Translations under genes and position numbers: made by a program
Shown here: positions 7,423 to 30,526 of the stretch, piece after piece
How positions within the stretch are numbered: position 1 is the stretch's first letter
Layout: each line of letters starts with the position of its first letter
The notes under the pieces: model-generated
What the model was told of the DNA's origin: nothing
Database searches by the model: none
The model's input: the letters and a program-made list of their open reading frames with translations, nothing else
From: Myxococcaceae bacterium
GTDB lineage: Bacteria; Myxococcota_A; Polyangia; Polyangiales; Ga0077539
Reading direction: 5' to 3'
Assembly (NCBI GenBank): GCA_004297725.1
Contig: SCUS01000054.1
Coordinates: 7,731 to 71,730 of the forward strand
Length of the DNA stretch: 64,000 bases

Positions 7423-7431
7423 CGTGCTAGC

Positions 7432-13392: not shown

Positions 13393-16300
13393 TCACCCCT
13401 CCCGATAGCGCCAGCTCAGGGTCTCTGCCGCGCCCGCTTCTCCGAGCACCTCCACGGCCGACTCGCGGTCGCAGAAGTCCATCGCGTACGAGCGGATGCG
13501 CGACGCGCAGGCCATGATGTCGCGGTCGCCCGGGATGTAGTCGAGGAAGGTACGGCTACACAGCAGCAGCATCTTCTGCTTCGCCCGCGAGGTGAGCACG
13601 TTGAAGCGGCTCAACCCGTAGATGAACTCCTCCTCGGCCATGAGCTGGTCGCGCGCGGAGATGCCCATCGAGGCCACGATGAAGGTCCGGTCCGAGCCCT
13701 GGAACTTCTCCACCGAGTACACCGTCTGCCGCAGGCAGCGGTCCAGCTCCGCGTCGTCCAGCGAGCTCCTCCGTACCGCTCCCTCTCCACCCCCCAGCCT
13801 CGCCTTGATCTCCCGGATGATCTGCCTCCCCTGCGCGTTGTGCGGCGCCACCACCCCGACGTGCTCCGCCCAGAACGCCCGCTCCTCCGCCGCGCTCTTC
13901 ACCCCCATCTGCGCGAAGAAGCCCGCCACCACCTCCGCCGCCAGCGTCGCCTCCAGAGGGCTCGTCGCCCGCTCTCCCTCCCGCCCGTGCACCAGCGTGT
14001 GCACCTCGCGCGACGGGTCGAGCACCGCCCGCACCCACGGGCTCGTCACCTCCGACGGAACCTCCGGGAGCAGCGCATACGGCCGCTCCTTCCGGAAGGC
14101 GCGCAGCTCGGTGTAGATCCCCAGCGTGCGGGTGTAGTCCACGATCGTATCCGTGGAGCGGTAGTTCACCTGGAGCTGGTGCGCGGGCATCCGGTGGCCC
14201 TCCAGGAAGTAGTGGAAGAGGCTCCCCAGCACCTTGCGCAGCTTGCGCGGCGGCTTCACCTGCTGCACCGGCGGGAGCTGGTGCTGGTCGCCCACCACCA
14301 CCACCAGGGTGCGCCTCGCGGGCATCGACGCGATGGCCATGGACTCCAACAACCGCGGCACCGGCCGCTCGTAGTCGGGCGTCGCGTCGGTGTAGCCGAG
14401 CGTCACCTCGCCGGGCCAGAGCACCTCGGCCGCCGCGAGGAAGTGGTCCGTCGGGAGCTGCGAGGCCTCGTCGACGATGATCAGGTCGAAGCCCGTGTCG
14501 TTCTTCAGGAAGTCGTAGGTGAACTTCGCCGCCGTGCTCGGCCCCGTCAGCTTGAAGAGCGAGTGCGCGTTGGCGAACATCACGAAGGACGGCGGCAGCG
14601 CGTCCTCCAGGCGCCTCCCCCCGGTGCGCTCGACCTTCACCCCGTCGAGCGTCATCGTGGGGCCGTGGATGGTGAGCCCGTGAGCCCCTCGGACGGGCAC
14701 CTCGCGGTCGCCGGAGAGCATGAACACCAGCGGTAGCTTCGCCGCCGCGGTGGGCTGCTGCTGCGCGTCGCGGTGCTCGCTGAGCTTGCGGGCCAGCACC
14801 ACCATCGCGTCGTAGGAGAAGGCCGTGACCAGCACCCGCACCGGTCCGTCGGCGCGGAGGACGAACTCGTCGACCAGGGCCGCGAGCGTCTGCGACTTGC
14901 CCGTCCCCGGAGGCCCCTGGAGGCAGGTGATGGTGCTCCCCAGGGCGAGCCGGATGGCCTCCTGCTGCGACGCATCCGGCGGAGGAGACACGGTGGTGCG
15001 GAGGGGATCGTGGTCGGGGATCCTCCCCGTGGGCAGCAGGGCCGGAGCGTAGAGGTAGGTCTCCGCCATGCTGAAGGTGAGCGAGGGAGGCGGAGGCAGC
15101 GCGGGCTCCGGGTGCAGGCCCATCAGCATCGACGCGCGGAAGCCCAGCCACGAGTGCCCGGTGCGCCACGACCAGCGGCGCAGCAGGCCGTTCTTGTTGT
15201 CGAGCAGCCGCCCCGACCAGATGTCCATGGTCGTGGGGTAGAGGTAGATCGGGTCTTCGGTGAGCGCGTCTCCGAGGGCCGAGAGCGCGGCGCCGAAGTC
15301 CTTCTCGCTGGCCGCGACGACGCACTCGTAGCAGCGGCGCGCGGCGTCGTAGCGCATCTCCACCAGCTCGACGCCCCACTCCTTGAGCTGGCTCTTCGCG
15401 CGCTTCGACTCCGGCACCAGCAGCGCCCGGTCGCCCTCCTTGAAGCGCACCTCGGCGGACATTCCATGGAGCTCGAAGCGCGCCCCTCCGTGGGGCATGT
15501 CCTCGTCCGGAGGGAGCGGCTGGAGGGCGGTGACCTCCGCGGCGTAGAGCCTCCCGATCCCCTTGGAGGGGTAGCTGTAGCGCACGTCGTCGACGGAGAG
15601 CTGCGCCGCCGTCGCGTTGAGCCGCGCGAACATGTACCAGGTGCGGGCGATGGCGTGCAGCCCGCCGAGGGGGAGGGTCTGGCGCATCCGGCGCACCTGG
15701 ATGGCCTCGCGCAGCATCAGCGACTCGCGCATCTCCGAGCGCACCGTCTGCAGGATGCGCTCGAGCCCCTGGAGCTTCACCTCGAGCTGGTCGCCGATCT
15801 GGGTGAGCTTCTGGTTGCGCTTGTTCTGGTTGCCCTCCTCGATGGCGGAGTGCCAGACGGCGTAGTCCATGTAGTTGAAGTGCGGCGCCCAGTAGCGGCT
15901 GGAGACGCTCCAGCGGAAGTCGCTCTTCAGCATCCCGTGCCAGGTGCAGTTGATGACGTGGGGAAGGCCCTGGGTGGTCTCCACGAAGGAGCGGAGGTCG
16001 AAGAGCTTCTGGTGCCGCGTGGCGTGCACCACGCCCGACTCCGTGGGGGCGAGCCACTGGAGAAGCTCCTCGAAGCGGCGGCGCAGCGTGGGGTCGGTGT
16101 GGATGCGGTCGACCTGGCGCTCCAGCATGTCCTGCGCGTGCTGCACCTGGTCCGAGGACCAGTAGAAGATCGCGAGCGAGGGGGCGGAGGGAGCGTTCCA
16201 GCTGCGGCCGTCGGCGAGGAGCACCGGGTGGATCACGCCCACCAGGGACTCCATCGCGTTGCAGAGGGTCACGCAGGCGGAGAGCTGGTTGAGCAGGTCC

Positions 16301-17907
16301 TGGGCGAGCTCGAACTCCTGCAGCGGGGTGACGTCGCCCGCCACGTAGCGCCAGGTCCAGCGCGCCTTGAGGGGAGCGCCCGGGTCGTCGTCGCGGGAGA
16401 GCAGCTCCAGCTTGCCGGAGTCGTGGAGGGCCGAGAGCGCGTGGCTCGCCTCGGCGATGAGCTCGTCGGCCGCGCCGGAGGTGACGCCCGCGTCCCGGAG
16501 GAAGGCCTCGTCGAGGGAGGGGCGCAGCCCGTGGGCGGCCTTGATCATCACCGCCGCGCTGGCGTTGGACTCCAGCAGCAGTCGGAAGTGATCCCACCAG
16601 GCGTCGTAGAGGTCGCGGTGCGCCGCGTTGGGAGCGCAGGTGATCTCCAGCCGCAGCGCCGCGCCGAAGACCACGTCGTGCGTCGGGTCGGACTCCAGGT
16701 CGACCAGCAGGGTCATGTCGCTGTAGCGAGGGAGCGCCATGGAGAGGTGGCGCTGCCCGCCGAGGTCGAGGACATGGGCGGCGACGCGCTGCTGCTCCAT
16801 CAGGGCGCGGGCGCGCAGCCGTAACATCGGTCGCTCGGCGTAGATGGGGTCGTAGCCCGACGAGGGAGGCACGACGGCGAGCGAGGTGGCGACGTCGCGC
16901 ACGGTGTCGAGCTTCTCCAGCGAGCGGAGGAGCCCGGCGGTGGTCGGGGAGGTGTAGGGGATGAGCCGGAGGTCCCAGTCGCCGGGGTCGGTGGAGCCGC
17001 GCTCCAGGGAGATCTTGCAGTCGTTGAGGTAGCGGCACGCGCCGCACGCGGGCTGCACCCGGACGTCCACCGCGTCGGGGTCGTGGGGGCGCCTGGAGAC
17101 GAGCTCCCGCACCCTCGCCGTCGCTCGCTCGAAGAGCACCCGCGCGTCGTCCCACACCAGCGGGACCATGAACTCCCCGGTGAGCTTCTCCAGGGTCAAC
17201 CCCGCGAAGGGATCGTCGATGAAGGGCAGGATCCCGTGGCCGTCGGCGGAGACGAAGAAGCGGTCGGCGACGCCCTGGGCGCGGAGCCAGTGGGAGAGTC
17301 CGTGGGCGTAGAAGAGGAGCTCGACGAAGTGCGAGCGGCCGACGCCGTGCTCGCTGGTGTGCTTCACGTCGAGCACTCGCAGCGAGAGCCGGGCGCGGCG
17401 CTCGTCGGGGGGGAGCACCCGGAGGCGCCCGTCGGGGAGCACCTCGCGGGCGACGGCGTCGTCGGCCGTGGAGGAGACCAGGAGCACGTCGGGGCGGAAG
17501 TTCTGGTCGGGGAGGGTGACGGGCATGGGGCCGTCGGCGGCGGCGTCCACGAGGAAGCGATAGAAGCTCTCCGGGAGGGTGGCCTCGTGCTCCAGCAGGA
17601 TCAGCGGCCCCGCGGAGGCGTCGGCGTGGAGGGCTCCGAGGGAGCGGCCGTCGAGCTTGCGGGGCAGCACCTCGCCGGCCTGATCGAGCTCGGCGCGGGC
17701 GCCCGGAAGCTGGCGCAGGGCGCGGTAGACCTGCTGCTCCCAGACGTGGCCGAGGCGGGCGGCCTCGTGGCGCTCGAAGTCGGGCTCGACCAGCTCGCGG
17801 TAGGGCGAGAGCAGGGCCGGGTCGGCCTCCGCGAGGTCCCAGAGGAGGCGTCGATCGCACTCGGTCTCGACGTAGTGCTTGAAGGCCAGCTTGTTGAGTC
17901 GCGCCAC
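13393..17907 (-). CDS. Dna2/TM0106-like nuclease-helicase (Fe-S PD-(D/E)XK nuclease, RNase H-like region, SF1B helicase)
   Basis: N-terminal Cys plus CGACRYLNDC bracket RPDVL..DVKH..ELLFY; helicase motifs GPPGTGKS, DEASQ, GDQHQLPP, NYRS, APHNAQ, VEKFQG and RFNVLTSRAK. Confidence 0.9.
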   Translation of the reverse strand: MARLNKLAFKHYVETECDRRLLWDLAEADPALLSPYRELVEPDFERHEAARLGHVWEQQVYRALRQLPGARAELDQAGEVLPRKLDGRSLGALHADASAGPLILLEHEATLPESFYRFLVDAAADGPMPVTLPDQNFRPDVLLVSSTADDAVAREVLPDGRLRVLPPDERRARLSLRVLDVKHTSEHGVGRSHFVELLFYAHGLSHWLRAQGVADRFFVSADGHGILPFIDDPFAGLTLEKLTGEFMVPLVWDDARVLFERATARVRELVSRRPHDPDAVDVRVQPACGACRYLNDCKISLERGSTDPGDWDLRLIPYTSPTTAGLLRSLEKLDTVRDVATSLAVVPPSSGYDPIYAERPMLRLRARALMEQQRVAAHVLDLGGQRHLSMALPRYSDMTLLVDLESDPTHDVVFGAALRLEITCAPNAAHRDLYDAWWDHFRLLLESNASAAVMIKAAHGLRPSLDEAFLRDAGVTSGAADELIAEASHALSALHDSGKLELLSRDDDPGAPLKARWTWRYVAGDVTPLQEFELAQDLLNQLSACVTLCNAMESLVGVIHPVLLADGRSWNAPSAPSLAIFYWSSDQVQHAQDMLERQVDRIHTDPTLRRRFEELLQWLAPTESGVVHATRHQKLFDLRSFVETTQGLPHVINCTWHGMLKSDFRWSVSSRYWAPHFNYMDYAVWHSAIEEGNQNKRNQKLTQIGDQLEVKLQGLERILQTVRSEMRESLMLREAIQVRRMRQTLPLGGLHAIARTWYMFARLNATAAQLSVDDVRYSYPSKGIGRLYAAEVTALQPLPPDEDMPHGGARFELHGMSAEVRFKEGDRALLVPESKRAKSQLKEWGVELVEMRYDAARRCYECVVAASEKDFGAALSALGDALTEDPIYLYPTTMDIWSGRLLDNKNGLLRRWSWRTGHSWLGFRASMLMGLHPEPALPPPPSLTFSMAETYLYAPALLPTGRIPDHDPLRTTVSPPPDASQQEAIRLALGSTITCLQGPPGTGKSQTLAALVDEFVLRADGPVRVLVTAFSYDAMVVLARKLSEHRDAQQQPTAAAKLPLVFMLSGDREVPVRGAHGLTIHGPTMTLDGVKVERTGGRRLEDALPPSFVMFANAHSLFKLTGPSTAAKFTYDFLKNDTGFDLIIVDEASQLPTDHFLAAAEVLWPGEVTLGYTDATPDYERPVPRLLESMAIASMPARRTLVVVVGDQHQLPPVQQVKPPRKLRKVLGSLFHYFLEGHRMPAHQLQVNYRSTDTIVDYTRTLGIYTELRAFRKERPYALLPEVPSEVTSPWVRAVLDPSREVHTLVHGREGERATSPLEATLAAEVVAGFFAQMGVKSAAEERAFWAEHVGVVAPHNAQGRQIIREIKARLGGGEGAVRRSSLDDAELDRCLRQTVYSVEKFQGSDRTFIVASMGISARDQLMAEEEFIYGLSRFNVLTSRAKQKMLLLCSRTFLDYIPGDRDIMACASRIRSYAMDFCDRESAVEVLGEAGAAETLSWRYREG

Positions 17908-17972
17908 GCGAGGGACAGTATCCGAAGCGCCGGGTGGAGAGAGGGGAGGCGTGCGGTAGCATCGCCCGCGCG

Positions 17973-18650
17973 ATGAAGAACAAGCCCCGAAAGCGCCCCT
18001 CTCCCCCGAAGTCCCGACCGCACTCCTTCGCGCCCGAGCTCGGCGCCGAGGAGGCCGCGGCGATCTGCGCCCTCAGCGACGCTGCGATGGGAGCGCGCGA
18101 CGGGAGGGCCATCGCGGCGCTGCTGTCGTCGGGAGCGCGGGCCCACTGCGTCGAGCACGCGAGGGAGTTCCACGAGGGGATGCGGCCGATCGTGGCGACC
18201 TTCGCGAAGAGCCCGACGGCGGAGCGGTTGTTCCGGAGGTTTCTCCCGGCGGCGCTCGACCCGTCGCGCGCCACGGGCGACGAGGTGGCCGTCACCGAGC
18301 AGGAGGTGACGGTGCAGGGCGTGGTGAGGTCGATGGTCGAGGCCGACCGAGACATGGCGGAGATCTTCGACGCCGCGCTGCGCATGCTCGACCCGCTGGT
18401 CGGCGCGACCGTCGACGACGTGCTCGCGGGGCTACTCGCGCAGATGGCCGACGACCTGCACGCCACGGGCTGGTCGAGCACGCCGCTCGGCAGCCGCGTG
18501 GAGGGCGGGCACGTCGTGCTGTCCGTGAGCGCAGCCGGACCGCAAGGAGAGCGCCGGGTCGAGGACTGGCGGGTCGTGCGCGAGGCGGACGGCTGGCGCA
18601 TGGACATCGACTGCACCGAGTGCCAGGGGGCCCGCGCGCAGTACGGCTGA
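17973..18650 (+). CDS. Hypothetical protein
   Basis: Host-like codon usage; divergent from the helicase; C-terminal WRVVREADGWRMD (NTF2-like ending) followed by CTEC. Confidence 0.65.
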   Translation: MKNKPRKRPSPPKSRPHSFAPELGAEEAAAICALSDAAMGARDGRAIAALLSSGARAHCVEHAREFHEGMRPIVATFAKSPTAERLFRRFLPAALDPSRATGDEVAVTEQEVTVQGVVRSMVEADRDMAEIFDAALRMLDPLVGATVDDVLAGLLAQMADDLHATGWSSTPLGSRVEGGHVVLSVSAAGPQGERRVEDWRVVREADGWRMDIDCTECQGARAQYG

Positions 18651-18663
18651 TACCCAGCAGAAG

Positions 18664-20343
18664 CTACGCGGTGGCGGCGCGCGCTGCGAGGAGCCTCTCC
18701 AGCTCCACGACCCGCGCTTCGAGTTCGGCTTCGCGAGAGCGATGGCCCTCCAGCCAACATCCTTTATCGAGGTCGTACCAGCCGTGCTTCTTCGTGGGGA
18801 CCTCCACCGAGACGCCGACGGTCGCTCCACGGGTCTGCACCGCCTGAGCGAACTCGCGGCGGGCGTTGTTGGTGCCGTGGGTGATGAACACCGTCTGTCC
18901 AGCGAGGCAGAGGTGTCCGTCGTACTCCCAGATGAGCCAGTCGAGCAGATCGTGCTGGTCCGCGTGCGCCGAGTAGCCATCGATCTTCTCGATGTGGGCA
19001 ACCATCTCCGAGAGAGGGAGGCGATGCATGGGGCGCTTCGGATCGGCGTCGGCCCAGGTGAGGTGAACGCTCACGCGGCAGCGATCCTCGATGGGAATCT
19101 GCACGTGCAGCAGGAGCCTGCCGCCGTTCGTCGCCGGGGGGATGAAGCTGGTGAACAGCACCGTGGTGCTCTCCCGGCGGAGCAGGGAGTCGAGGTAGGC
19201 CATCACCATCCCGCCTTCGCACATCCCGCTGCCGGTGATGACGACGGCGGGAGCGCCGCCCTCGATCACCTGAGCGATGGGCTTGTCGTGGACGGTGAAG
19301 CCCGCCGCGCCGGACTTCCCCCGAAGCATGTTGGTGAGGCGCGCCTCCAGCTCTTTCTCCCCTTCGGGGGTGTCGGGGAGCCCGAACACGGAAGAGAGCT
19401 GCCTGGCGCGCCAGACGGGCTTGAGGCTGCCCTTGCGGCTGAGCTCCTTCCGGCGCATGCCCTCGGCGTAGATGCCATTGACCTTCGCCGCCATCGGAGC
19501 GTTCAGGTACATCGGGATGCCCCGATACCGTGACGGGTCGGAGCGGAAGACCTCGTGGAGATCGAGCAGCACCGACTGCGTGCGATCGACCGCAAGGCAG
19601 GGGATCAGCAGGACGCCTCGCTGTTCGAAGAGCGTCCGATCGACGATCTGGCGCAGGCGCTCGACGCGGGCTGCGCGGCTGCGCTGCTCCGGCGAGCGGC
19701 TGGTGGCCCCGTAGGTGGATTCGACCACTGCGTAGTCTGCGAACGCGGGCTTCATCCGATGTCGCAAGAGCCCGAGGTGCTCGTCCCCTTCGGCATTGGT
19801 CCCGACGTCACCGGAGAAGGTGATGGAGCGCTGGGTTCGCTGCCCGCGAACGGTGGGCTTCGGACCCCAGACGATCTGCACGGATACCGCGCCGAGGATG
19901 TGACCGGTGCGGCAGAACGTGAAGAACAGGTCGGTGCCGAAGGGGTGGAGTTCTCCGAAGAGGCGCCCCGACGGTTCGTGGAAGAGGGGGGCGAGGGCCT
20001 CGACGTCGGCACTGGAGAAGGGGGCTCCGGGCTGTCGCGCGGCGTCGGCCAGGATGAGCTTCGTGAGCTCGGCGGTCTCGCGGGTGCAGTAGACCGTACC
20101 GCGGAATCCCTCCTTCACGAGGCGCGGCAGCAGCCCGCAGTGATCGAGGTGCGCGTGCGTGAGGAAGACGCACTTCAACCGGGAGGGGACGAACTCCAGC
20201 GGACGGTGGTTCCAGTCGCGCTCGCCGTGCTCGCCCTGCATCATTCCGCAGTCGACGAGGAACTCGATGTCCTGCGCCTCGTGCTGGAGCCAGTAGCAGG
20301 AGCCGGTGACCTGCTCGATGGGGTTCAGGAATCGGACCTTCAT
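18664..20343 (-). CDS. MBL-fold beta-CASP nuclease (CPSF/TTHA0252-like)
   Basis: VTGSC, VDCG, THAHLDHCG, GHILG, FSGDVG, VESTYG, SGMCEGG, YSAHAD and ITHG motifs. AGGAGG lies 7 nt upstream of ATG 20343, which overlaps the upstream stop (ATGA). Confidence 0.9.
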   Translation of the reverse strand: MKVRFLNPIEQVTGSCYWLQHEAQDIEFLVDCGMMQGEHGERDWNHRPLEFVPSRLKCVFLTHAHLDHCGLLPRLVKEGFRGTVYCTRETAELTKLILADAARQPGAPFSSADVEALAPLFHEPSGRLFGELHPFGTDLFFTFCRTGHILGAVSVQIVWGPKPTVRGQRTQRSITFSGDVGTNAEGDEHLGLLRHRMKPAFADYAVVESTYGATSRSPEQRSRAARVERLRQIVDRTLFEQRGVLLIPCLAVDRTQSVLLDLHEVFRSDPSRYRGIPMYLNAPMAAKVNGIYAEGMRRKELSRKGSLKPVWRARQLSSVFGLPDTPEGEKELEARLTNMLRGKSGAAGFTVHDKPIAQVIEGGAPAVVITGSGMCEGGMVMAYLDSLLRRESTTVLFTSFIPPATNGGRLLLHVQIPIEDRCRVSVHLTWADADPKRPMHRLPLSEMVAHIEKIDGYSAHADQHDLLDWLIWEYDGHLCLAGQTVFITHGTNNARREFAQAVQTRGATVGVSVEVPTKKHGWYDLDKGCWLEGHRSREAELEARVVELERLLAARAATA

Positions 20344-22097
20344 CGCGCGACCTCCTGCGTGGTGGTGTCGTCGACCTCGTAGCAGAGCCGGAAGCCGATC
20401 TTGCACGCGCGGTACTTCCCCCAGCTCGACGAGGGGAAGAAGTCCCGCGCCACGGGGAGCCCGTCGTGGATGCCCTGGAGGGTGGCGGTGTTGATCGCTG
20501 CCGCGCTGGTCTCGTTGTGCTCGAAGAGCCACTCGCCGAAGCCGATCGCGGCGATGAATCGCAGCCCGCCCGCTCCTTCGCGCCAGGAGAGCCCTGACCG
20601 GAAGCGGGCGTGCTCGTCACTCCCGATGAAGTCCCACTTCGTTCTCCGCGTGCCATCGGGCTTGATGAAGTCCACGCAGCCGTTGGTCAGCCGCGCCTGC
20701 ATCGGGTCGGTGCCCGGCGCCCGCCGCGGGAGCGCTCCAGCCGACAGCGCGCCCGGGTGCAGTCGCAGGTACTCCGCGCAGCGCAGCAGGCGCACCGGCC
20801 GGTGGTGCTTCTGCTCGAACCAGCGCGCGTAGGCCTGCGCGTCGTACCAGTTCACGCAGGCTGGCAGGTCGTCCGGGTCGTGGTTGGGCGCCGCGAGGTC
20901 ATCGACCTTCTCCGCGCGCCGCGCCGCGTAGCCGGTCTCTGAGAGAAACCGACGCAGCTCCGCGATGGTCACCAGGGGCGACACGAGGAGCGTGCTCCCG
21001 CCGTCGACCGCGACGGGCACGAAGTTGTCGAGCGCGGTGCGATCCGTAGCGAGCGTCGGAGCCTGGTAGATCCCCCGGGCGACGGCCCACCGGCGGGCCA
21101 CTTCCCGCATCCCGGGATACTGCGAGCTGTCGCCACCCGCAGCGTAGTACGCCGTTTCGGCCTCCCACTCGTCGCGGTCGCTCCAGCGCTCGACCTGGAA
21201 GTAGCGCCAACGCTCGAAGCAGGCGTGGAACATCAGCACATCGGGGATGTCCAGTGGGGACAGGTTGCCATCGAAGGGAGCGGCGGGCGGGGGACGGTCA
21301 CGGAGGCCCCGGAAGACGAAGTCGTACGCACCGTCGGGGGCTCGCAGGAAGACCAGCTCGCGGTTGTAGCGAATGAGCTCGACCCACCCGCGGCGGTCAC
21401 GGTCGATCCATTGCTGGAAGAGCCGGAAGGACTCGGCATCCTCGCGCTGGATCTCCTTCACTTCGTCGGGCGGCGTGGTCGGGTTGAACCAGGTCCCGAT
21501 CACGAGGTGATCGTCGGACCGCGGATGGACGAGCCCGTCATGGAGGAGGTTGAACCCCGCCGAGACGTGGGTGCGGAGATGGCGCGCAAGGAAGAGGGCA
21601 ACCTCCGCGGGGTCGACGACGGGGAGGGCATATCTCGCCTGCATCGGTCCGGACATGGGCGGATGGGAGTGCTGGTCGACGAACGCCCAGTCGAAGTCGT
21701 GGCCGGTGAAGATGCGCTTCGGGAGAGGGCGCCCGGAGTTGAAGATCCGCTCGGCGAGGTACTGCCGCCGAAGGGTGAGGACTGACCACGCCTCGGGCGG
21801 AGGGGCGAGCAGGTTCTTCCGGTGGAGGAGCCCGTGCTCTCGCATGAAGTCGCGGAGCGAGGGCCACTGCTTCTGGTAGCCGTCGAAGCCGCCGCGGAAG
21901 CCGAGGCGCTTCGAGACCGCACTCAACGCCGCGGCGTGGCGAATGCCCTCAGGGCTATCGGGATTGCGGATGAGCTCGTCTCGAACAGCGACGCGGATGG
22001 CCTCCGGGGCGAGGTCGTCGAGCGGGACGACGTGCTCCTCGCGGAGCGGCAGGAATTGAAGAACGGTGTGCTTGGACTTCTGGACACGAGGGATCAT
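20340..22097 (-). CDS. Hypothetical protein with small helical N-domain and C-terminal FGE-sulfatase/C-type-lectin-like domain
   Basis: C-terminal VTIAELRRFL, PACVNWYDAQAYARW, VRLLRCAEY, GEW and IGFRLC match FGE-sulfatase-fold motifs; N-terminal IRHAAALSAVSKRLGF; GGAGG precedes ATG 22097. Confidence 0.8.
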   Translation of the reverse strand: MIPRVQKSKHTVLQFLPLREEHVVPLDDLAPEAIRVAVRDELIRNPDSPEGIRHAAALSAVSKRLGFRGGFDGYQKQWPSLRDFMREHGLLHRKNLLAPPPEAWSVLTLRRQYLAERIFNSGRPLPKRIFTGHDFDWAFVDQHSHPPMSGPMQARYALPVVDPAEVALFLARHLRTHVSAGFNLLHDGLVHPRSDDHLVIGTWFNPTTPPDEVKEIQREDAESFRLFQQWIDRDRRGWVELIRYNRELVFLRAPDGAYDFVFRGLRDRPPPAAPFDGNLSPLDIPDVLMFHACFERWRYFQVERWSDRDEWEAETAYYAAGGDSSQYPGMREVARRWAVARGIYQAPTLATDRTALDNFVPVAVDGGSTLLVSPLVTIAELRRFLSETGYAARRAEKVDDLAAPNHDPDDLPACVNWYDAQAYARWFEQKHHRPVRLLRCAEYLRLHPGALSAGALPRRAPGTDPMQARLTNGCVDFIKPDGTRRTKWDFIGSDEHARFRSGLSWREGAGGLRFIAAIGFGEWLFEHNETSAAAINTATLQGIHDGLPVARDFFPSSSWGKYRACKIGFRLCYEVDDTTTQEVAR

Positions 22098-22103
22098 CGA
22101 CGA

Positions 22104-22223
22104 CCTCCGTGTGTCACTTCGAGCAGCGGTGCTGCTCGATCCCCATCCGTGGATGGTCGCCCTCGGGAAGACACACAAAGAAGGGTTGATGAAACCTGGA
22201 ACTACAGGTCCAACTCCGACTTC
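22104..22223 (-). ncRNA. Putative structured 5' leader or cis-regulatory RNA
   Basis: GUGUGUC/GACACAC closing stem (22170-22176 with 22109-22115) encloses a perfect 9-bp hairpin (22119-22139) and two shorter ones; a separate interrupted stem lies at 22180-22223. The closing stem extends over the SD sequence. Confidence 0.55.
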
Positions 22224-22289
22224 AGGGAATCTCTTGCTGTGATCGCAGGCGACGACGATCCAGGGCAGGTGAGATTCGACGCGAGGCTG

Positions 22290-22318
22290 TCTGTAGTCAG
22301 GGACGATGCCGCCGTCAA
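22290..22318 (-). promoter_or_regulatory. Possible sigma70 promoter for the leader-FGE-MBL operon
   Basis: TTGACG-17 bp-TACAGA; the -10 lacks the final T. Confidence 0.3.
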
Positions 22319-22839
22319 GGCTTCGCGTCGGGCAGCTGTCCGAGCTCGATGAACATCGGCAGCGCCACGGGCCGGTCGCCGAGCTCACCCGCGACGAGCT
22401 CGAGCCGCATGAATCCCAGCTTTTCGTAGAAGGCGATCGCTTCGGGTTTCGCATCCACGATGAGACCGACGCAGCCGAGGTCTTCTGACATCTGTTGTGC
22501 AAGGACCAACACGGCGCGCAGCAGCAAGCTGCCCACGCCCTGACCCTTGGCCTTCTCGTCGACCGCCAGTCTGGCGAGGCGCAGCACGGGCACCGGATAC
22601 CGCGGGAGTCGTCGTCGCCTCGAGGGAGGCATCTTCTCGGGCGACAGCTCGGAGGCGGTCACCGTCGCGAACCCGACGATCAGGCCCGCGTCGTCGATCG
22701 CCACGTAGGTCGTGCCGATGTGGTGGCGAAACTGGTTCTGTCCCGCGTAGCGAGTGAAGAACCGATCGAGGTCGGCGTTGCCCGAACGGAAGCCAGAGCG
22801 GTCGTCCTCCGGGGTGAGCTTGCGGACCGTGCAGGTCAT
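22315..22839 (-). CDS. GNAT acetyltransferase toxin (AtaT/TacT-like)
   Basis: DRSGFRSGNADLDRFF, PVPVLRLARLAVD, GQGVGSLLL and VDAKPEAIAFYEKLGF motifs; 7 bp downstream of a small RHH gene. Confidence 0.85.
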   Translation of the reverse strand: MTCTVRKLTPEDDRSGFRSGNADLDRFFTRYAGQNQFRHHIGTTYVAIDDAGLIVGFATVTASELSPEKMPPSRRRRLPRYPVPVLRLARLAVDEKAKGQGVGSLLLRAVLVLAQQMSEDLGCVGLIVDAKPEAIAFYEKLGFMRLELVAGELGDRPVALPMFIELGQLPDAKP

Positions 22840-22846
22840 CAGGAGC

Positions 22847-23131
22847 TCACGGCTCGCCGTCGATGGGCTTGCCTGCCATCAGATCACGCAGCGCCTTCGT
22901 CGGCCTGCGCGGCTTCTTCACGACCTCCTCCACCGCGTCGAAGGACCTCGCGGTGACCACGATGCTCGGGGGAATGACGATGTCGGCAGGCAGCTCTCGC
23001 AGCGCCTGCAGGTGATGTAGCAGGGCCGTCTCGACCAGGTGACCCTTCTTCACGCCGTGCGCCTCGGCGTACCGTTCGACCATCTGCTTCGTCGCTTCGG
23101 AGATGTGAGCGGAAATCTGCGTGTCGGCCAT
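22847..23131 (-). CDS. Ribbon-helix-helix antitoxin (DUF1778-like)
   Basis: N-terminal beta strand QISAHIS plus two helices; C-terminal FDAVEEVVKKPRRPTKALRDLM resembles DUF1778; position upstream of the GNAT gene. Confidence 0.8.
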   Translation of the reverse strand: MADTQISAHISEATKQMVERYAEAHGVKKGHLVETALLHHLQALRELPADIVIPPSIVVTARSFDAVEEVVKKPRRPTKALRDLMAGKPIDGEP

Positions 23132-23148
23132 CGGGGAGTCACCTCGCT

Positions 23149-23185
23149 TCTACAAAAACGTAGACGCGCGTCCCGCCCTGAGCAA
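23149..23185 (-). promoter_or_regulatory. Sigma70 promoter of the TA operon with overlapping inverted-repeat operator
   Basis: TTGCTC (23180-23185)-17 bp-TACGTT (23157-23162); inverted repeat TCTAC-N6-GTAGA (23149-23164) covers the -10. Confidence 0.6.
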
Positions 23186-23192
23186 GCCGCGC

Positions 23193-23804
23193 CTACCGCA
23201 TCCGCCGCGAGCGCTCCCGCTTCACCGCCGGGTCGCCCTCGTCCTCGCGCTGCGCCTGCCTGCGCTCCGCCGCCGTCGTCGCCAGGGCCCTCCGCCAGCG
23301 CCACGCGCGCCACCCCACGTCCAGCGCCGCCAGCGCCGCCAGCGCCGCGCCCAGCCTCGTCGCGAGGCCCGTCATCGAGCCCGCGGTCACCCACGCCGCC
23401 GCGCCCGCCGCCAGCACCGCCGCGCCGTAGGCCGTCGTCGCGAGCGCCACGCTCCACGCGCCCGGCTCGCCGGTGCGCCCGCTGTCCTCCGCCGATCGCC
23501 TCGCCCCCCGGGTCTGCGCCAGCGTCGCCGCGGCCGCCGCCACCACCGCCGCGCCGAGCGCCAGGCCCAGCGGCGCCACCACCGGTCCGGTGATGGCCGA
23601 CGCCGCGCGCCACGGGTCGACCTCCTCTCTCGCCGCCTGCGAGAGCGCCTCCCTCACGGCCCCCTGAAGCGCCTCCCCCACCGCCGGAACCGTCGCCACC
23701 ACCGCGGCCCACACCGCGGCCAGCACCGCGACCTCCGAGAGCGGCGCCCGGCCCTCCCTCCGGGCGCGGGCGAGCTCGCTCTCCGTGGGCGGCTGCGTGC
23801 TCAC
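23193..23804 (-). CDS. Truncated or divergent FlhB/EscU/YscU-family export switch homologue
   Basis: PTESELARARREG...PLS N-terminus, TM helices and QREDEGDPAVKRER; stops before the NPTH-containing cytoplasmic domain. Confidence 0.7.
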   Translation of the reverse strand: MSTQPPTESELARARREGRAPLSEVAVLAAVWAAVVATVPAVGEALQGAVREALSQAAREEVDPWRAASAITGPVVAPLGLALGAAVVAAAAATLAQTRGARRSAEDSGRTGEPGAWSVALATTAYGAAVLAAGAAAWVTAGSMTGLATRLGAALAALAALDVGWRAWRWRRALATTAAERRQAQREDEGDPAVKRERSRRMR

Positions 23805-23826
23805 GACGCCCGACGGTACCCCGAAC

Positions 23827-25746
23827 TCACCCGAGGCCCAGCAGCCCCGCGACGCGCGACGCCACGAAGGCCGCCACCCAGGCGAGCGCGTAGGTGTAGA
23901 CCACGACGAAGCCCACCCAGCGCCACGAGCGGGTCTCCCTCCGGATGGCCGCGAGGGTGCTCATGCACTGGCAGGCGAAGACGAAGAACACCAGCAGCGA
24001 GACGCCCGTGCGCGTGGTGTAGCGGGGGTGGCCCTCGCTGTCGCGCGCCGTGCGAAGGCGCGTGGCGAGCGACTCGGGGTGCTCGTCGGCGTTCTCGATG
24101 CCGGAGATGACGCCGAGGGTGCCGACCATGAGCTCGCGCGCCCCGAAGGAGCCGAGGAGCCCGACGTTGATGCGCCAGTCGAAGCCGAGCGGGCGGGTGA
24201 TGGGCTCCAGCGCCCGGCCGACGGAGGCCCCGACGCTGCGCTCCATCGCCGACGCGGCGGTGGGGTGGGGGTCCGCCGGGGCGCCGGGGGAGGGGACGTG
24301 GAGCAGCACCCAGAGCACGGCGCCGCAGGCCAGGATGACGGTCCCGACGTCGCGCACGAAGCGCTTGCCGGCGACCCAGCAGGCGCGGGCGATGGCGCGA
24401 GGGTCGGGCGATCGGTACGCGGGCATCTCCAGCACCAGCGGCAGCCGGCGGCCCCTGGTGGCCGAGCGGCGGAGCACCATGGAGACCACCACCGAGGCGA
24501 CGATGCCGGAGAGGTAGAGCGCGACGAAGAGCGTGGCCTGGAGCACCGGGCGGCCGCCGAAGAAGGCCGCGAGCACCAGGCCGTAGGTGGGGATGCGCGC
24601 CGAGCAGGCCAGCAGCGGCAGCGCCAGGATGACCGTGAGGCGCTCCAGCGGGTCGCGGACGATGCGCGTCGCGGCGATGGCCGGGACGGCGCACGCGTGG
24701 GCGGTGAGCATCGGGACGAAGGCCCGGCCGCCGAGGCCGAAGGGGCGCAGCGCGCCGTCGATGAGGAAGGCCCCGCGGGCGAGGTAGCCGCTCGCGTCGA
24801 GGAGCTCCATCGCGGCGGTGAGGATGACGATCTGCGGGAGGAAGGCGAGCACCGTCCCCGCGCCGCCCAGCAGGCCGTCGGCCACGAAGGACCCGAGGAG
24901 CCCGTCGCCGAGAAGGCGCTCCGCGAGGGCCCCGAGGCGCTGCACCCCGACGTCGAGCACGGAGGAGACCGGGTCGGCCACGGCGTAGACCGCGGCGAAG
25001 AGCCCGATCATCAGCCCGAGGAAGAGCACCGGACCGGCCACCGGGTGCAGCAGCACTCGGTCGAGCTGGGCGGTGCGGTCGCGGCGCTCCAGGGCCTCCT
25101 CGGTGACCACCGGGGCGTCGGTGATCGCCTGGTGGGCGAGCTCGTCGGCGCTCCACGAGGGCGCCGGGCGCTCACCCGGGAGGGCCTCGGCGACCAGCGC
25201 GGCGATGGCCGTGAGCAGCGTGGCGCGCGTCGAGGGATCGTGCGCGTTGATGGCCACCACCGGGACCCCGAGGGCCTTCACCAGCGGCGCGACGGAGAGC
25301 AGCCGCCCCTCGGCGAGGACCACGTCGCGCTGGGTGAGCACCACCAGCAGCGGCAGCGGCCGGGCGAGCAGCTCGCGGGTGAGCGCGAGGCCCGCGGCGA
25401 GCTGCGAGGCGTCGAGCACCTGCACCAGCACCGCGCGGGTCTTCTCGGCGATCACCCGGTCGAGGAAGGAGCGGGCGACGCCCTCGTCGGTGCCCGGGTC
25501 GAGGGTGACGTCGAGGCTGTACACCCCGGGCAGGTCGAGCACCCGCGCGAGCTTCTGGGAGCCGGGCAGCGGGAGGTCGGCGGAGAGGATGTCGACGGTG
25601 ACGCCGGGGAAGTTCCCGACCTTGGCGTGGGCGCCGGTGAGGCGGTTGTAGACCGACGACTTGCCCGCGTTGGGGCGGCCGAGCAGCAGCACCGCGGGGG
25701 CGTCGTCGCCCAGCAGGTGCTCGTCGCCGTGATGGTGGTGGCTCAC
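23827..25746 (-). CDS. feoB: Ferrous iron transporter B
   Basis: GRPNAGKS, VGNFPGVT and DLPG GTPase motifs; gate motifs SGYLARGAFLID, CSARIP, LEMPAY and ARELMVGTL. GTG start overlaps the feoA stop. Confidence 0.92.
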   Translation of the reverse strand: MSHHHHGDEHLLGDDAPAVLLLGRPNAGKSSVYNRLTGAHAKVGNFPGVTVDILSADLPLPGSQKLARVLDLPGVYSLDVTLDPGTDEGVARSFLDRVIAEKTRAVLVQVLDASQLAAGLALTRELLARPLPLLVVLTQRDVVLAEGRLLSVAPLVKALGVPVVAINAHDPSTRATLLTAIAALVAEALPGERPAPSWSADELAHQAITDAPVVTEEALERRDRTAQLDRVLLHPVAGPVLFLGLMIGLFAAVYAVADPVSSVLDVGVQRLGALAERLLGDGLLGSFVADGLLGGAGTVLAFLPQIVILTAAMELLDASGYLARGAFLIDGALRPFGLGGRAFVPMLTAHACAVPAIAATRIVRDPLERLTVILALPLLACSARIPTYGLVLAAFFGGRPVLQATLFVALYLSGIVASVVVSMVLRRSATRGRRLPLVLEMPAYRSPDPRAIARACWVAGKRFVRDVGTVILACGAVLWVLLHVPSPGAPADPHPTAASAMERSVGASVGRALEPITRPLGFDWRINVGLLGSFGARELMVGTLGVISGIENADEHPESLATRLRTARDSEGHPRYTTRTGVSLLVFFVFACQCMSTLAAIRRETRSWRWVGFVVVYTYALAWVAAFVASRVAGLLGLG

Positions 25747-25982
25747 TCGGCCGCTCCCGCGGGGTCGACGTCGATGCTCCCGGCGAGCGCGCGGTCGATG
25801 GCGAAGGCGGTGCGCTCGCCCACGCGCACCTGCAGCGGACCGCGAAATGGACCCGCCCGCAGCACCGTCACCGCCACGCCCTCGGCGACCCCGAGCGCCC
25901 GCAGCCAGCGGGCCTCGACCGGGTCTACGCGCAGCGCGACGATGCGCGCGGTCTGGTGGTGGGTGAGCTCGCGGAGGGTCAT
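25743..25982 (-). CDS. feoA: Ferrous iron transport protein A
   Basis: 79-aa SH3-like protein (WLRALGVAEG..GPFRGPLQVRVG..FAIDR) directly upstream of feoB. Confidence 0.9.
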   Translation of the reverse strand: MTLRELTHHQTARIVALRVDPVEARWLRALGVAEGVAVTVLRAGPFRGPLQVRVGERTAFAIDRALAGSIDVDPAGAAE

Positions 25983-26129
25983 CGGTGCGACCGAGGGGGC
26001 GGCTTATCACGGTTCGCCCGGGGAGTGGGCACGGGCCTTGTAGAGTGAGCCCTCGCGGCGCGCGGCTGCGGCAGTACTGGGCCACCGTGCGCCACCCGCG
26101 TGATCGCCACGCACAGGAGCGCCGACGCC

Positions 26130-27008
26130 ATGACTCGATACTTCTCCAGGGTGACCTTCGTTGCGGCGCTGCTCGCCGTGGGCGGCTGCGGCAGCACGGT
26201 GGTGGCCCCTCCGCCTCCGGTCGACGGCGGCGTGGTGTGCCGCTTCCCCGACGGCACCGAGTGCCGCCAGGGGCAGAGCTGCCCCTCTCCCGACGGGTGC
26301 AACACCTGCGCGTGCTCGGGCGACGGCCTGCTCGCCTGCACGGCGAGGGCGTGCGTCGACGGCGGTCCGGCGGACGTCCCTGCGAGGAGGGCGTGCGTGT
26401 CGGGCGCGGACTGCGCGCTCGGCGAGGAGTGCCACATCGTCGAGGGCTGCGCGACGCCGAGCTACTGCGGCCCGATGCTCGGCCGGGTGTGCACCGGCGA
26501 CGTGACGCCCTACTGCGGCTGCGACGGGCGAACCTTCTTCGCCAGCTCGACCTGCCCCACGCGAACCTACGAGCGCCGGGGCGCCTGCGAGGGCGTCGAC
26601 GCGGGCTCGCCGACGGACGGGGGAGGGACGTGCCGCAGCACCGGGGACTGTCCCCCGTCGATGATGTGCCAGGGGGCGCAGGGCTGCGACGTCCCGTGGC
26701 GCTGCGTCCCGGCCACGGCCTGTACGCCGGACATCGCGCGCTTCTGCGGCTGCGACGGGGTCACCTTCGAGGGAAGCTCCACCTGTCCGGGTCGGCCCTA
26801 CCGCGCCTTCGGTCGCTGCCCCATGCCAGACGGCGGAACCTCCTGCGCCCCGATGGACGCCGTCGGCGAGGGCCTCTGCGACGGGTACTTCGGCGTCGCG
26901 TGGAACGGCTCCTCCTGCGTCTCCATCACCGGCTGCCGCTGCGTCGGAGCGGACTGCCCCAGAGCCTACCGAGACCGCGAGGAGTGCGTCGCGGCCTGCG
27001 GCGGCTGA
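26130..27008 (+). CDS. Cys-rich lipoprotein with Kazal-like and pacifastin-like modules
   Basis: Lipobox VGGC; DGCNTCAC...CT module and two CGCDGxTFxxSSTC repeats. Confidence 0.8.
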   Translation: MTRYFSRVTFVAALLAVGGCGSTVVAPPPPVDGGVVCRFPDGTECRQGQSCPSPDGCNTCACSGDGLLACTARACVDGGPADVPARRACVSGADCALGEECHIVEGCATPSYCGPMLGRVCTGDVTPYCGCDGRTFFASSTCPTRTYERRGACEGVDAGSPTDGGGTCRSTGDCPPSMMCQGAQGCDVPWRCVPATACTPDIARFCGCDGVTFEGSSTCPGRPYRAFGRCPMPDGGTSCAPMDAVGEGLCDGYFGVAWNGSSCVSITGCRCVGADCPRAYRDREECVAACGG

Positions 27009-27082
27009 GGGGTCGCGCGGGCCTTGTGGGCGTGCTCCGCCGGTGCCAGATTCGCACCGCGCGGGGCGCAGAGGAGTTTCCC

Positions 27083-27535
27083 ATGAGCGAGAGCGAGATG
27101 GCCGACCGCATCGATGTGATCACCGACCTCCTGATGGGGGCCGCGTACTCCGACGGGTCGCTCGAAGGCCGCGAGGAGGCCACCGTGCGCCGGCTCCTCG
27201 GAGAGCTGCTCGACGGGGCGCTGCCGGCGGCGACGGACGCGCGCATCGCGAAGTTCTCCCCGGAGGGCTTCGACCTGGAGGAGACCGCGGCGCCCTTCCG
27301 CGACGACAGCCCCGAGCGCAAGCGCAAGCTCCTCGAGCTGGTGGTCGCGGTGCGCGACGCCGATGACGTCTTCGACACCGACGAGGACGACTACATGACC
27401 GCGCTGGCCCGGGCGCTCGGCATGAAGCCCGAGGAGTACGCCGACCTCGCGCTGCAGATCGAGGAGCTGCGCAGCTCGCTCGACGAGGTGCGGCGCTCGA
27501 TGCCGCCGGTGCTGCTCACGGCGCGCAAGAGCTGA
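27083..27535 (+). CDS. TerB-family protein
   Basis: LMGAAYSDGSLEGRE and VRDADDVFDTDE..ALARALG paired motifs; GAGGAG upstream of ATG 27083. Confidence 0.8.
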   Translation: MSESEMADRIDVITDLLMGAAYSDGSLEGREEATVRRLLGELLDGALPAATDARIAKFSPEGFDLEETAAPFRDDSPERKRKLLELVVAVRDADDVFDTDEDDYMTALARALGMKPEEYADLALQIEELRSSLDEVRRSMPPVLLTARKS

Positions 27536-27554
27536 GAGGGTAAGGGCGCCCCGC

Positions 27555-27878
27555 TCAGTGGATGCGGTGGGGGTAGGCCGCCACCACGTCGCGGGCCGGG
27601 CGCTCGATGCGCTCGACCACGGAGGTGACCAGGTCGCGCTCGCCGCGGCGGAAGTACACCGAGTGGCCGATCTGAGGGTGCTCGAGGGTGGGGATGATCC
27701 CGCCCTCGACGTGCTTGAGCGCGCCGGCGAGGCGGCGGCCCACGGCGGGGTGGTCGTCGCGCCAGCGGTCGACGCCGCGGTCTCTCACGGCCACGCAGAC
27801 CTCGGCGCGGACGTGATACTCGGTGTTGCGCGTCACGAACACCCGGTGCACCCGCCGCTCTGAACCTTCGTACGACAT
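27555..27878 (-). CDS. Conserved hypothetical protein
   Basis: RVFVTRNTEYH...CVAVRDR pattern; AGGAGG upstream; good codon bias. Confidence 0.75.
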   Translation of the reverse strand: MSYEGSERRVHRVFVTRNTEYHVRAEVCVAVRDRGVDRWRDDHPAVGRRLAGALKHVEGGIIPTLEHPQIGHSVYFRRGERDLVTSVVERIERPARDVVAAYPHRIH

Positions 27879-27947
27879 CGTCGGCCTCCTGCGAGCCGCA
27901 GCCGTACGCCCGACGGGTTCGACCCGTCCAGAAACCCGATGGACCGG

Positions 27948-28850
27948 TCAGTGGTCGTCGATGGGGCCGTTCTCCTCGGGCGCGGCGCGCGGCGCGTCCT
28001 CCTGTCCCGCCTCGCCCTCCGGCGTGAGCAGGGCGAGCGCCCACCGCTCGGTGCTCGAGCTCTCGTGCAGGAACATCGTCGCCCTCGCCCGGATGCCGTC
28101 GAGGGCGCGGTCGGCCGCGCGAAGCTCCGCCGCCAGCGCCGGGGGAGCTCCCGCGGAGATGCCCGGGTAGAGCGAGCGCAGCTCGTTGGCGAGCGCCACC
28201 GAGCGCTCGAAGATCATCGCCTGCGCCGCCGAGCGCCGCAGCACCCGCACGAGCTGCGCGAGCACCGCCGGGCCGTCGGCCCCCTGGGTGCCCTCGATCG
28301 CGCCGGGCTCGCAGCGCGGCTCCGGGGGCGGCGCGGCGGAGGTGGCCGTCCGCGGCGGAGGGAGCGTCCCGGAGGGCGTCGTCCTCACCACCCTCAGCGT
28401 CTCCTCCAGCGCGACCAGCACGTCGTCCTGCGGGGTGTCGCCGGTCGCCCGCGCGGAGGTCTCGATCCATCGGGCGAGGGCCGCCTCGGACTCCAGCGAG
28501 CGCCGCAGCCGGGTGGGCGCCCGCCCGATGCCGGTGTGGCTCAGCCTCGCCTGGGCCACCTCCCCGACGCGCGCCAGGGAGCCCTCCGCCGGGATGCAGA
28601 GCATCACCTGCAGCGGGCGGAGCACCTCGATGCGCCGCAGGTCGGCCGTCGCCAGCTCCCGCTGCAGCGAGTACAGCGTGGCGAACCACCGGGTGCGCGC
28701 CTCGCTGTCGGCCACCACGCGCTGCTCCCGGTCGACCCTCGTGGCGCGCTGCGGGCGGCCCGACGCGCAGGCCGTGAGCGCCGCCAGCAGGAGACCCAGG
28801 GGCAGGCCTCGGCCGCTCAACGGTCGACACTCCGGGACAAGAAAATACAA
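27948..28850 (-). CDS. Hypothetical lipoprotein
   Basis: LLLAALTAC lipobox near the N-terminus; start uncertain. Confidence 0.55.
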   Translation of the reverse strand: MYFLVPECRPLSGRGLPLGLLLAALTACASGRPQRATRVDREQRVVADSEARTRWFATLYSLQRELATADLRRIEVLRPLQVMLCIPAEGSLARVGEVAQARLSHTGIGRAPTRLRRSLESEAALARWIETSARATGDTPQDDVLVALEETLRVVRTTPSGTLPPPRTATSAAPPPEPRCEPGAIEGTQGADGPAVLAQLVRVLRRSAAQAMIFERSVALANELRSLYPGISAGAPPALAAELRAADRALDGIRARATMFLHESSSTERWALALLTPEGEAGQEDAPRAAPEENGPIDDH

Positions 28851-28972
28851 GTCGGCGACAACTTCACGGGGCTCAAAACGCTATCACCACAGCGGTTTCC
28901 ACGCGGTGCCGAAAACGTGAGGCAACGCCGCATGAGGCGCTACTCACGACCTCGTCGAAGCACGGAGCGTTC

Positions 28973-30526
<1,554 letters not shown>

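Follow-up and report, generated by a model that had tools for sequence, protein, structure and literature searches.

In the present study, we analyzed a 64,000-nucleotide (nt) stretch of a Myxococcaceae bacterium contig (SCUS01000054.1; hereafter the window), in which a 217-nt minus-strand spacer (22098-22314) sits between a GNAT acetyltransferase gene and the 585-residue gene P0001. The results suggested that this spacer holds an RNA leader that is probably a real translational control element of an uncatalogued kind. An earlier note on this DNA had proposed a functional cis-regulatory RNA hiding the ribosome-binding site (RBS), and the proposal was supported by purifying selection, by substitutions that respect the fold, by transcription, and by covarying, RBS-sequestering leaders of homologous genes. 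A fold of the leader, its conservation, its transcription, and the recurrence of such leaders before homologous genes elsewhere were all observed. As for its role, we consider it fairly likely that the leader is a cis-acting translational gate on an operon for a protein of the FGE fold, a beta-CASP nuclease, and a large protein. The coordinates of the elements are collected in Table 1.

The pairings claimed in the earlier note for 22104-22223 (minus strand) were all present in the minimum free energy (MFE) fold calculated with ViennaRNA. The MFE fold was a three-way junction, and the junction stayed in the centroid except for the 2-bp CC/GG stem. The closing helix, which joins the Shine-Dalgarno (SD) strand to an anti-SD strand, consisted of 12 pairs (nine Watson-Crick and three G-U) and was worth about -15.6 kcal/mol (-37.9 with the helix and -22.3 without it). 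With the leader extended by 30 nt of coding sequence, SD:anti-SD partner probabilities were 0.63-0.91. ViennaRNA also gave an alternative fold, and the SD was paired in both folds. The GAAG/CUUC pairs of the interrupted hairpin A formed only when the anti-SD helix was open. The anti-SD strand was invariant in all four distinct window-type sequences. No terminator-like site was found in the leader; the 22119-22139 hairpin is followed by AGUGACAC, which does not make an intrinsic terminator or attenuator. An 11-nt perfect complement was seen between the SD and spacer (22097-22107) and the coding sequence (22011-22021, codons 26-29). It was taken as chance, because a 22100 T>G change in the related locus L009 breaks the complement and is not compensated.

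P0001 was rare, occurring in two of 60 related genomes and with seven relatives in a set of 5.8 billion proteins. Pattern scans for P0001 loci yielded 80 loci in metagenomes (176 candidates, of which 86 were confirmed) and 24 in genomes, the latter including L006, which was known before. Six loci (L006-L011) were close, with 87-96% protein identity. Among these, L009 and L011 alone were informative, as L006-L008 share a mosaic tract with the window and L010 is just as similar to it where the two overlap. In the leader core (22098-22258), L009 differed from the window at 2 of 161 positions (1.2%) and L011 at 6 of 161 (3.7%), whereas 73 of 606 and 91 of 579 four-fold degenerate sites of P0001 and the beta-CASP gene differed, respectively (Fisher p 3.8e-6 and 1.7e-5); divergence at such sites in the two genes was 10-16%. 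In the distal spacer (22259-22314), 10 of 56 positions differed in L009 and 7 of 56 in L011. Judged against synonymous sites, the leader core is thus subject to purifying selection. The mosaic tract was itself observed as a single difference between the window and L006 in about 650 nt (21790-22441) versus about 5% elsewhere; it looks like a recombination mosaic reaching from the 3' end of the GNAT gene through the leader and over the initial 300 nt of P0001.

The few substitutions in the leader appeared to fit an RNA fold; all except one were counted as compensatory or as lying in loops or single-stranded parts. In L011, a compensatory change from A-U to G-C was found in the 22119-22139 hairpin (22133 with 22125), together with a 1-nt deletion in its loop (22129); in L009, 22127 G>A opened one terminal, closing pair of the same hairpin. 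Loop changes were 22164 G>A in the CCC-GA-GGG loop (L006 and L010) and 22203 A>C in L011, the sole variant of hairpin A. Two changes at 22235-22236 lay 5' of hairpin A, both placed inside an upstream stem by the 225-nt MFE fold, and the change at 22100 lay in the SD-AUG spacer. The window type comprises only four distinct sequences, which are 99% identical; thus its invariant positions are uninformative on aptamer nucleotides. A covariance model of the window type (R1) found no match in 98 distant loci (best E 0.86) and, among the genomes of 40 relatives, matched only G002.

Six RNA-library runs contained part of the stretch, and four of them were mapped over 4 kb; the runs had been chosen for containing it. 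In run X17 (study P16), a single 471-nt contig covered 21803-22273 with one mismatch, and in run X19 (study P17), a single 466-nt contig covered 21809-22274, also with one mismatch. Among the matches listed, no loose end was seen at these places. The earlier note had stated that a transcription start inside or downstream of the structure would speak against its RNA; the contigs end at 22273/22274, upstream of the structure, and this hints weakly at where the transcript has its 5' boundary. The roughly 470-nt piece, made up of the leader and about 290 nt of coding sequence with ends agreeing within 1 and 6 nt, was the only assembled piece of the 4 kb in these two runs; the uncovered parts are not evidence of absence. 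No terminator-like element was present at the lower contig end (21803-21809). The lower edge of the mosaic tract (21789) is near the lower contig ends (21803 and 21809). In runs X15 and X16, long contigs ran across the region in a variant with a partly deleted toxin-antitoxin pair, and these could be DNA. Based on putative -35 and -10 elements picked by eye, a transcription start was predicted near 22283, and the first ~25 nt of the predicted transcript were its least conserved part. A consensus scanner called no promoter or terminator in the spacer, the -10 element being without the final T.

We compared the upstream 400 nt of 87 homologue loci from several phyla, whose proteins were 24-35% identical to P0001 except for five close relatives. 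Start codons were re-picked before typing; a global MAFFT alignment of all leaders was unusable, and the groups were aligned separately. The ~150 nt before the start were 70-89% identical between loci whose proteins share 37-60%, the leaders being more conserved than the proteins; for L055 and L090, the values were 82% over the upstream 155 nt (E 8e-36) and 41% for the protein. Two broad leader types emerged, namely G1 (covariance model R2) and a 5'-domain type (alignment A9 of groups G2, G3, G4, and G6; 28 sequences). The G1 model matched 28 of the 87 loci and the 5'-domain profile 35 (E up to 0.01), five were of the window type, and 19 fell in no type. R2 was built from 20 leaders, which are themselves 20 of the 28 that it found in 98 distant loci. 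The leader type tracked the P0001 subfamily and not the downstream partner. No Rfam match was obtained for homologue leaders in 16 loci at the gathering threshold, nor in 12 at E up to 1. In L056 and L064, near-consensus sigma-70 promoter-like sites (10 and 11 of 12) ended 7-8 nt before the conserved RNA.

For G1, RNAalifold predicted, unaided, an anti-SD/SD helix enclosing hairpins. With a pseudoknot added by hand, 96.2% of 583 cells were paired in 22 sequences, and 14 of 27 pairs had compensatory changes; none of 500 shuffles reached the observed values, and slid controls were 34-48% paired. The pair at the base of the SD helix read AU in eight sequences, CG in eight, and UA in three. The pseudoknot, which links the loop of the 5' hairpin to a strand in the SD-enclosed region (columns 66-73 with 153-160), had four covarying pairs. 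In the 5'-domain type, helices P1, P2, and P4 covaried, and reading of the sequences revealed a loop-to-downstream complementarity whose sequence differs by group. RNAalifold returned no pairs for the 3' half of the Verrucomicrobia-like group, where RBS pairing comes from reading and from duplex listings. For 49 leaders, chosen out of 88, the anti-RBS region was also paired with the cognate RBS and with RBSs taken from other groups. Cognate duplexes averaged -16.8 kcal/mol versus -12.3 kcal/mol for swapped ones, and 40 of the 49 cognates beat their own swapped mean; the window leader gave -21.4 cognate and -14.7 swapped. In a single-sequence test of RBS pairing, which is a weak test, the mean was 0.76 versus 0.62 in shuffled sequences, and 47 of 61 leaders exceeded their own shuffled mean.

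Several further features of the distant leaders were observed. In L029 (590-604) and other G1 leaders, a U-rich tail lies behind the last hairpin before the SD and is flagged as terminator-like by the scanner; G1 leaders may combine attenuation with SD sequestration. In L020, L030, L038, and L101, a local hairpin seen by eye about 150-130 nt before the start (e.g., GGCUC-GCGAC-GAGCC) competes with the long-range P1 helix for shared bases, and this competition may be a switch in the 5'-domain type. L046 carries a second, degenerate G1-type leader (7309-7455; 79 bits), followed by what remains of a P0001-like N-terminus, truncated after about 12 codons. In L056, a sub-threshold match to the Rfam family psRNA2 (3524-3725, minus strand; 46.8 bits versus 65, E 2.6e-8) lies just downstream of the NYN gene. 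The arms GAGCAGC and GCUGCUC of the window hairpin resemble the G1 pseudoknot strands GCUGCCUC and GAGGCAGC but are placed as a local hairpin, and coincidence is possible.

The window leader was then set beside both types. Like them, it immediately precedes the orthologous gene, is of similar length (about 150-185 nt from the promoter-like site), is likewise absent from Rfam, and has its parts in the same order, i.e., a long 5' hairpin, an anti-RBS strand, one or more hairpins, and the RBS. It shares with G1 an anti-SD strand that pairs the SD and encloses hairpins, and with the 5'-domain type, by eye, a GUUGG...UCAAC hairpin at the same relative position. However, no sequence or covariance-model similarity was found in either direction. 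With filters off, R2 had no match in 22098-22314 (window 15000-30000 searched; best elsewhere E 2.5), and the A9 profile had none in the window leader (nhmmer, E up to 100). The window leader is also without the invariant motifs of the two types (UCUCCAAAUC-type anti-SD and GCGGUUG...CAAACAAAG hairpin base), and it encloses three hairpins rather than one. Their loop-to-downstream pseudoknot or kissing interaction was not seen in it by eye; no complement of the hairpin-A loop UAGUUC was found in the leader or the early coding sequence in this inspection, for which no pseudoknot program was used. From these comparisons, we regard the window leader as a lineage-specific version that works like the sister types, not as a member of either. 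The comparison with Rfam that the earlier note had suggested turned up no family. A search of 21000-23500 against Rfam 15 (4,227 models, E up to 10) returned only an unrelated sR10 match on the other strand (14.7 bits versus 45).

The fold was more stable than shuffled sequence, as the earlier note had required, with z from -1.5 to -2.7; nevertheless, it was only mildly unusual, since 3 to 15 of 200 shuffles were as good. The individual values were z = -2.68 (3/200) for the 120-nt stretch, -2.09 (5/200) for the 93-nt stretch, -1.63 (15/200) for the 225-nt whole spacer, and -1.54 (14/200) for the 166-nt conserved core. The calculated energetics permit the structure without proving it, and its significance rests on conservation.

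Several observations weigh against the reading as a translational gate. Within the lineage of the window, covariation came to one pair and was not significant (116 of 500 shuffles reached it), and 37 of 39 pairs never varied. The covariation on which the earlier note had made its claim depend was found in the leaders of distant homologues, and the overall interpretation as a cis-regulatory, RBS-hiding RNA was supported. The identity to L006, L007, and L008 comes partly from the mosaic tract, which also covers coding sequence. The contigs that hint at a 5' end carry no strand information. When 100 nt of coding sequence was included, codons 2-5 took the place of the anti-SD strand as the partner of the SD in the MFE fold; thus, the exact partner is model-dependent. 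No convincing alternative ON conformation was found, and a search by eye for an anti-anti-SD strand yielded only a 5-bp AGAGA/UCUUU option. Stability was modest, as 2.3% of GC-matched (57.5 +/- 3%) 120-nt windows of the same genome folded at least as well (n = 2,500). Pairing of the SD in an MFE fold is also common: the paired fraction was 0.80 for the window leader and averaged 0.70 when its upstream part was shuffled, with 38% of 40 such shuffles equaling the window. The duplex signal was weak in the AT-rich (-12.0 versus -11.4) and Verrucomicrobia-like (-14.0 versus -13.6) groups. Finally, the window leader is not detectably homologous to the covarying types, whose covariation supports it by analogy only.

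One rival explanation is a functionless fold, in which the low divergence comes from constraint at the DNA level (e.g., a promoter or an operator palindrome bound by a transcription factor) or from recent recombination, and the structure is what is expected of a 59%-GC spacer in a 72%-GC genome. The z values, the 2.3% of matched windows, the near-identity with L006 that reaches into coding sequence, and the covariation that was not significant all agree with this explanation. In addition, a dimer might bind at 22119-22139, which is a perfect 21-bp palindrome, and any change that preserves the palindrome is compensatory as well. However, divergence is also low in L009 and L011, although their flanking coding sequence and distal spacer have diverged normally, and it is low over 161 nt, far more than a single operator would take up. 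Taken at face value, the ends of the RNA contigs put the region downstream of the transcription start, within the transcript. Strongly covarying leaders that sequester the RBS have been kept independently before homologous genes in other phyla. We therefore consider a functionless fold improbable.

A further explanation is that the roughly 470-nt piece (22274 to about 21805) is not primarily a translational gate but a stable RNA, either non-coding or with a dual function. It would act in trans or together with the operon proteins, e.g., by serving the beta-CASP nuclease as substrate, guide, or scaffold. The agreement of its ends in two RNA studies would suit such an RNA, as would the top-scoring NCBIfam model for the nuclease, Cas14, an RNA-guided type VII effector (187.2 bits). 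However, this score is far under the cut-off of 800, and aCPSF1 scores similarly (157.8 versus 580.2). Contigs cannot show RNA ends or levels, the runs were picked for holding the stretch, and nothing terminator-like lies near the lower end. The leader also travels with P0001 homologues whatever the partner (radical SAM, NYN, or beta-CASP), and a stable RNA of this kind seems quite unlikely. Least probable of all, and very much so, is a 5' stabilizer that guards the mRNA from 5'-end-dependent decay, or a site cleaved as feedback by the co-encoded beta-CASP RNase, with SD pairing incidental: a structured 5' end, a co-encoded RNase of the RNase J/CPSF superfamily, and RNA contig cover skewed to the 5' part speak for it, but most homologous leaders precede operons without a beta-CASP gene, the feature conserved across types is RBS pairing and not a 5'-terminal hairpin, and the predicted transcript is least conserved at its very beginning.

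Returning to the translational gate, the region from 22098 to about 22283 (minus strand) would be the 5' untranslated leader of a potentially harmful operon comprising P0001, the translationally coupled beta-CASP nuclease, and a ~1,700-residue protein. The leader would fold into the upstream hairpin and the three-way junction, with the 12-bp closing helix pairing the SD with the anti-SD strand. We infer that, by default, this helix holds down translation initiation at the first gene, and translation of the nuclease would also be held low through coupling. A trans-acting input would then open the helix; a small ligand or a processing event could provide it, as could a protein, perhaps P0001 itself. 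A specific trans input appears more likely than a purely constitutive damper, because the better-sampled homologue leaders have pseudoknots or kissing loops and invariant unpaired nucleotides, like sensor RNAs.

Three known classes of RNA were considered for comparison. In translational riboswitches (SAM-II/preQ1-type) and other SD-sequestering leaders, a helix pairs the SD with an upstream strand. The window leader likewise pairs its SD to an upstream strand, with structured elements between the strands and directly before the start codon, but no recognized aptamer, Rfam match, or clear mutually exclusive ON structure was found in it. Protein-binding autoregulatory operators in mRNA (e.g., ribosomal-protein leaders and the thrS operator) are similar in that a structured leader precedes the first gene of an operon whose downstream genes are translationally coupled, and in that the leader type goes with the subfamily of the first protein, not with the changeable partner. 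The difference is that the N-terminal part of P0001 has no recognizable RNA-binding fold or family. As in RNA thermometers of the fourU or ROSE type, the GGAG of the window SD pairs with a U-rich CUUU through two G-U wobbles. However, the helix continues with seven G-C/A-U pairs, and the mean predicted probability of SD pairing in silico was 0.99, 0.98, 0.97, and 0.96 at 20, 30, 37, and 45 °C, respectively. The value at 45 °C means that melting in the physiological range is not predicted, which sets the leader apart from a thermometer.

P0001 gave a weak Pfam match to FGE-sulfatase and weak sequence matches to OvoA and EgtB. Its AlphaFold model was confident (pLDDT 86.9, from 55 sequences). 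Foldseek comparison of the model with the PDB returned weak matches only, to EgtB, PvdO, and FGE folds and all to the C-terminal domain, and no PDB match for the N-terminal part. The nuclease did not qualify as a member of a type VII CRISPR-Cas system, its Cas14 score being below the cut-off; no CRISPR-array search of the window was made. PADLOC 2.0 assigned no family to P0001, the beta-CASP protein, or the 1,734-residue open reading frame (ORF), and the ORF also had no match in Pfam or NCBIfam. The P0001 family had no match among plasmids or phages and no usable match in the ESM Atlas. In the homologous loci, the downstream partners were radical-SAM proteins (about 313 residues), NYN RNases with or without OST-HTH, B12-binding radical SAM, AAA16-TPR, and beta-CASP proteins. 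In G1-type loci, the partner was a radical SAM protein at 18 loci, NYN at four, and beta-CASP at none. Across L012-L109, in Proteobacteria, Verrucomicrobia, and AT-rich lineages, the P0001 family was seen as a constant first gene with interchangeable second genes. The FGS domain and such modularity are known from conflict systems (PMC7159879). The regulated module is uncharacterized and looks like a conflict system. Full-text searches returned no publication that connects an RNA motif with genes of this kind or describes this RNA or the gene pair, and the gene terms were absent from the main text of papers on non-coding RNA discovery.

A wider reading, which we put forward tentatively and hold to be rather doubtful, is that the window leader is a lineage-specific version of an undescribed set of sensor RNAs gating a rare, horizontally scattered two-gene module. 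The sister leaders would be aptamers for a ligand or for their own protein, and the SD helix would be the shared expression platform. The module may consist of a protein of the FGE/C-type-lectin fold and a swappable effector, i.e., a beta-CASP or NYN RNase, a radical-SAM enzyme, or a STAND-like ATPase. If this is true, the leaders would represent a new riboswitch-like or autoregulatory class of RNA tied to an apparent conflict or defense system. Hiding the RBS in a leader helix is textbook biology. This RNA and its counterparts match no Rfam model. If the leaders sense something, they would offer an experimental handle on what turns the module on. The G1 (28 loci) and 5'-domain (35 loci) types are ready candidates for a new structured-RNA family.

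Table 1. Elements of the leader, its putative promoter, and neighboring genes in the window.
Feature	Position	Strand	Details
Putative -35 element TTGACG	22313..22318	-	Picked by eye; overlaps GNAT stop codon; unchanged in L009 and L011
Putative -10 element TACAGA	22290..22295	-	Picked by eye; 17 nt after -35; TACAAA in L009, TACACA in L011
Upstream end of RNA contigs	22273..22274	-	X17 and X19; upstream of the whole structure
Upstream hairpin GGAUCG...CGAUC	22241..22261	-	MFE of 225-nt spacer; start of conserved core; L009 and L011 unchanged between 22258 and 22237
Interrupted hairpin A: GAAG / GUUGG-ACCUG / loop UAGUUC / CAGGU / UCAAC / CUUC	22180..22223	-	ViennaRNA
Parts of hairpin A	22223-22220; 22214-22185; 22183-22180	-	GAAG; GUUGG-ACCUG/UAGUUC/CAGGU..UCAAC; CUUC (from sequence)
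Anti-SD strand UCUUUGUGUGUC	22170..22181	-	Partners 22115-22104 in MFE and centroid
Small stem CCC-GA-GGG	22160..22167	-	Only 2 bp (CC/GG) predicted; missing from centroid
Hairpin CCAUC-CACG-GAUGG	22143..22156	-	Predicted fold; invariant in window-type sequences
Hairpin UCGAGCAGC-ACC-GCUGCUCGA	22119..22139	-	Predicted fold; 9-nt arms, 100% complementary
SD strand GACACACGGAGG	22104..22115	-	GGAGG at 22108-22104; 6-nt spacer; AUG at 22097
P0001 start codon	22095..22097	-	N-termini of 8/8 aligned homologues begin here; GGAGG 6 nt upstream
P0001, regulated gene (585 residues)	20340..22097	-	N-terminal region of no recognized fold; C-terminal FGE-sulfatase/C-type-lectin-like domain
beta-CASP/metallo-beta-lactamase nuclease gene	18664..20343	-	ATG overlaps P0001 stop (ATGA)
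1,734-residue ORF	13556-18760	-	After nuclease gene; third operon gene
GNAT acetyltransferase gene	22315..22839	-	Of toxin-antitoxin-like pair; 5' boundary of spacer
Small RelB-like antitoxin-type gene	22847-23131	-	Just before GNAT gene

The beta-CASP gene directly followed P0001 in L006-L011 and in nine distant loci. The 1,734-residue ORF was present in close relatives but not behind the beta-CASP genes of distant loci. The region around the leader was A/T-richer, as the earlier note had claimed, with 57.5-59% GC versus 72.4% for the genome. The leader was single-copy in the 9.39-Mb assembly, the sole other match being 30 nt at chance level, and a reading as a repeat or mobile element was dropped on this ground. 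A coding reading, either as an upstream extension of the reading frame or as a plus-strand shadow ORF (21822-22352), was ruled out because L011 has the 1-nt deletion and an in-frame stop near 22221; the homologue N-termini align at 22097. A remnant of a tRNA-like or attachment site in the distal spacer, where L009 reads GGTTCGAATC, was dropped by eye, as the flanks cannot make a T-arm.

The GNAT/RelB-like pair (22315-23131, minus strand) was intact in the window, L007, and L008 and partly deleted in L006 and L009 (about 3329-3780). In L006 and L009, the leader was retained together with the final 126 nt of the GNAT gene. At 23162-23178 (minus strand), a terminator-like hairpin with a T run was also observed, between an FlhB-family fragment and the antitoxin-type gene.

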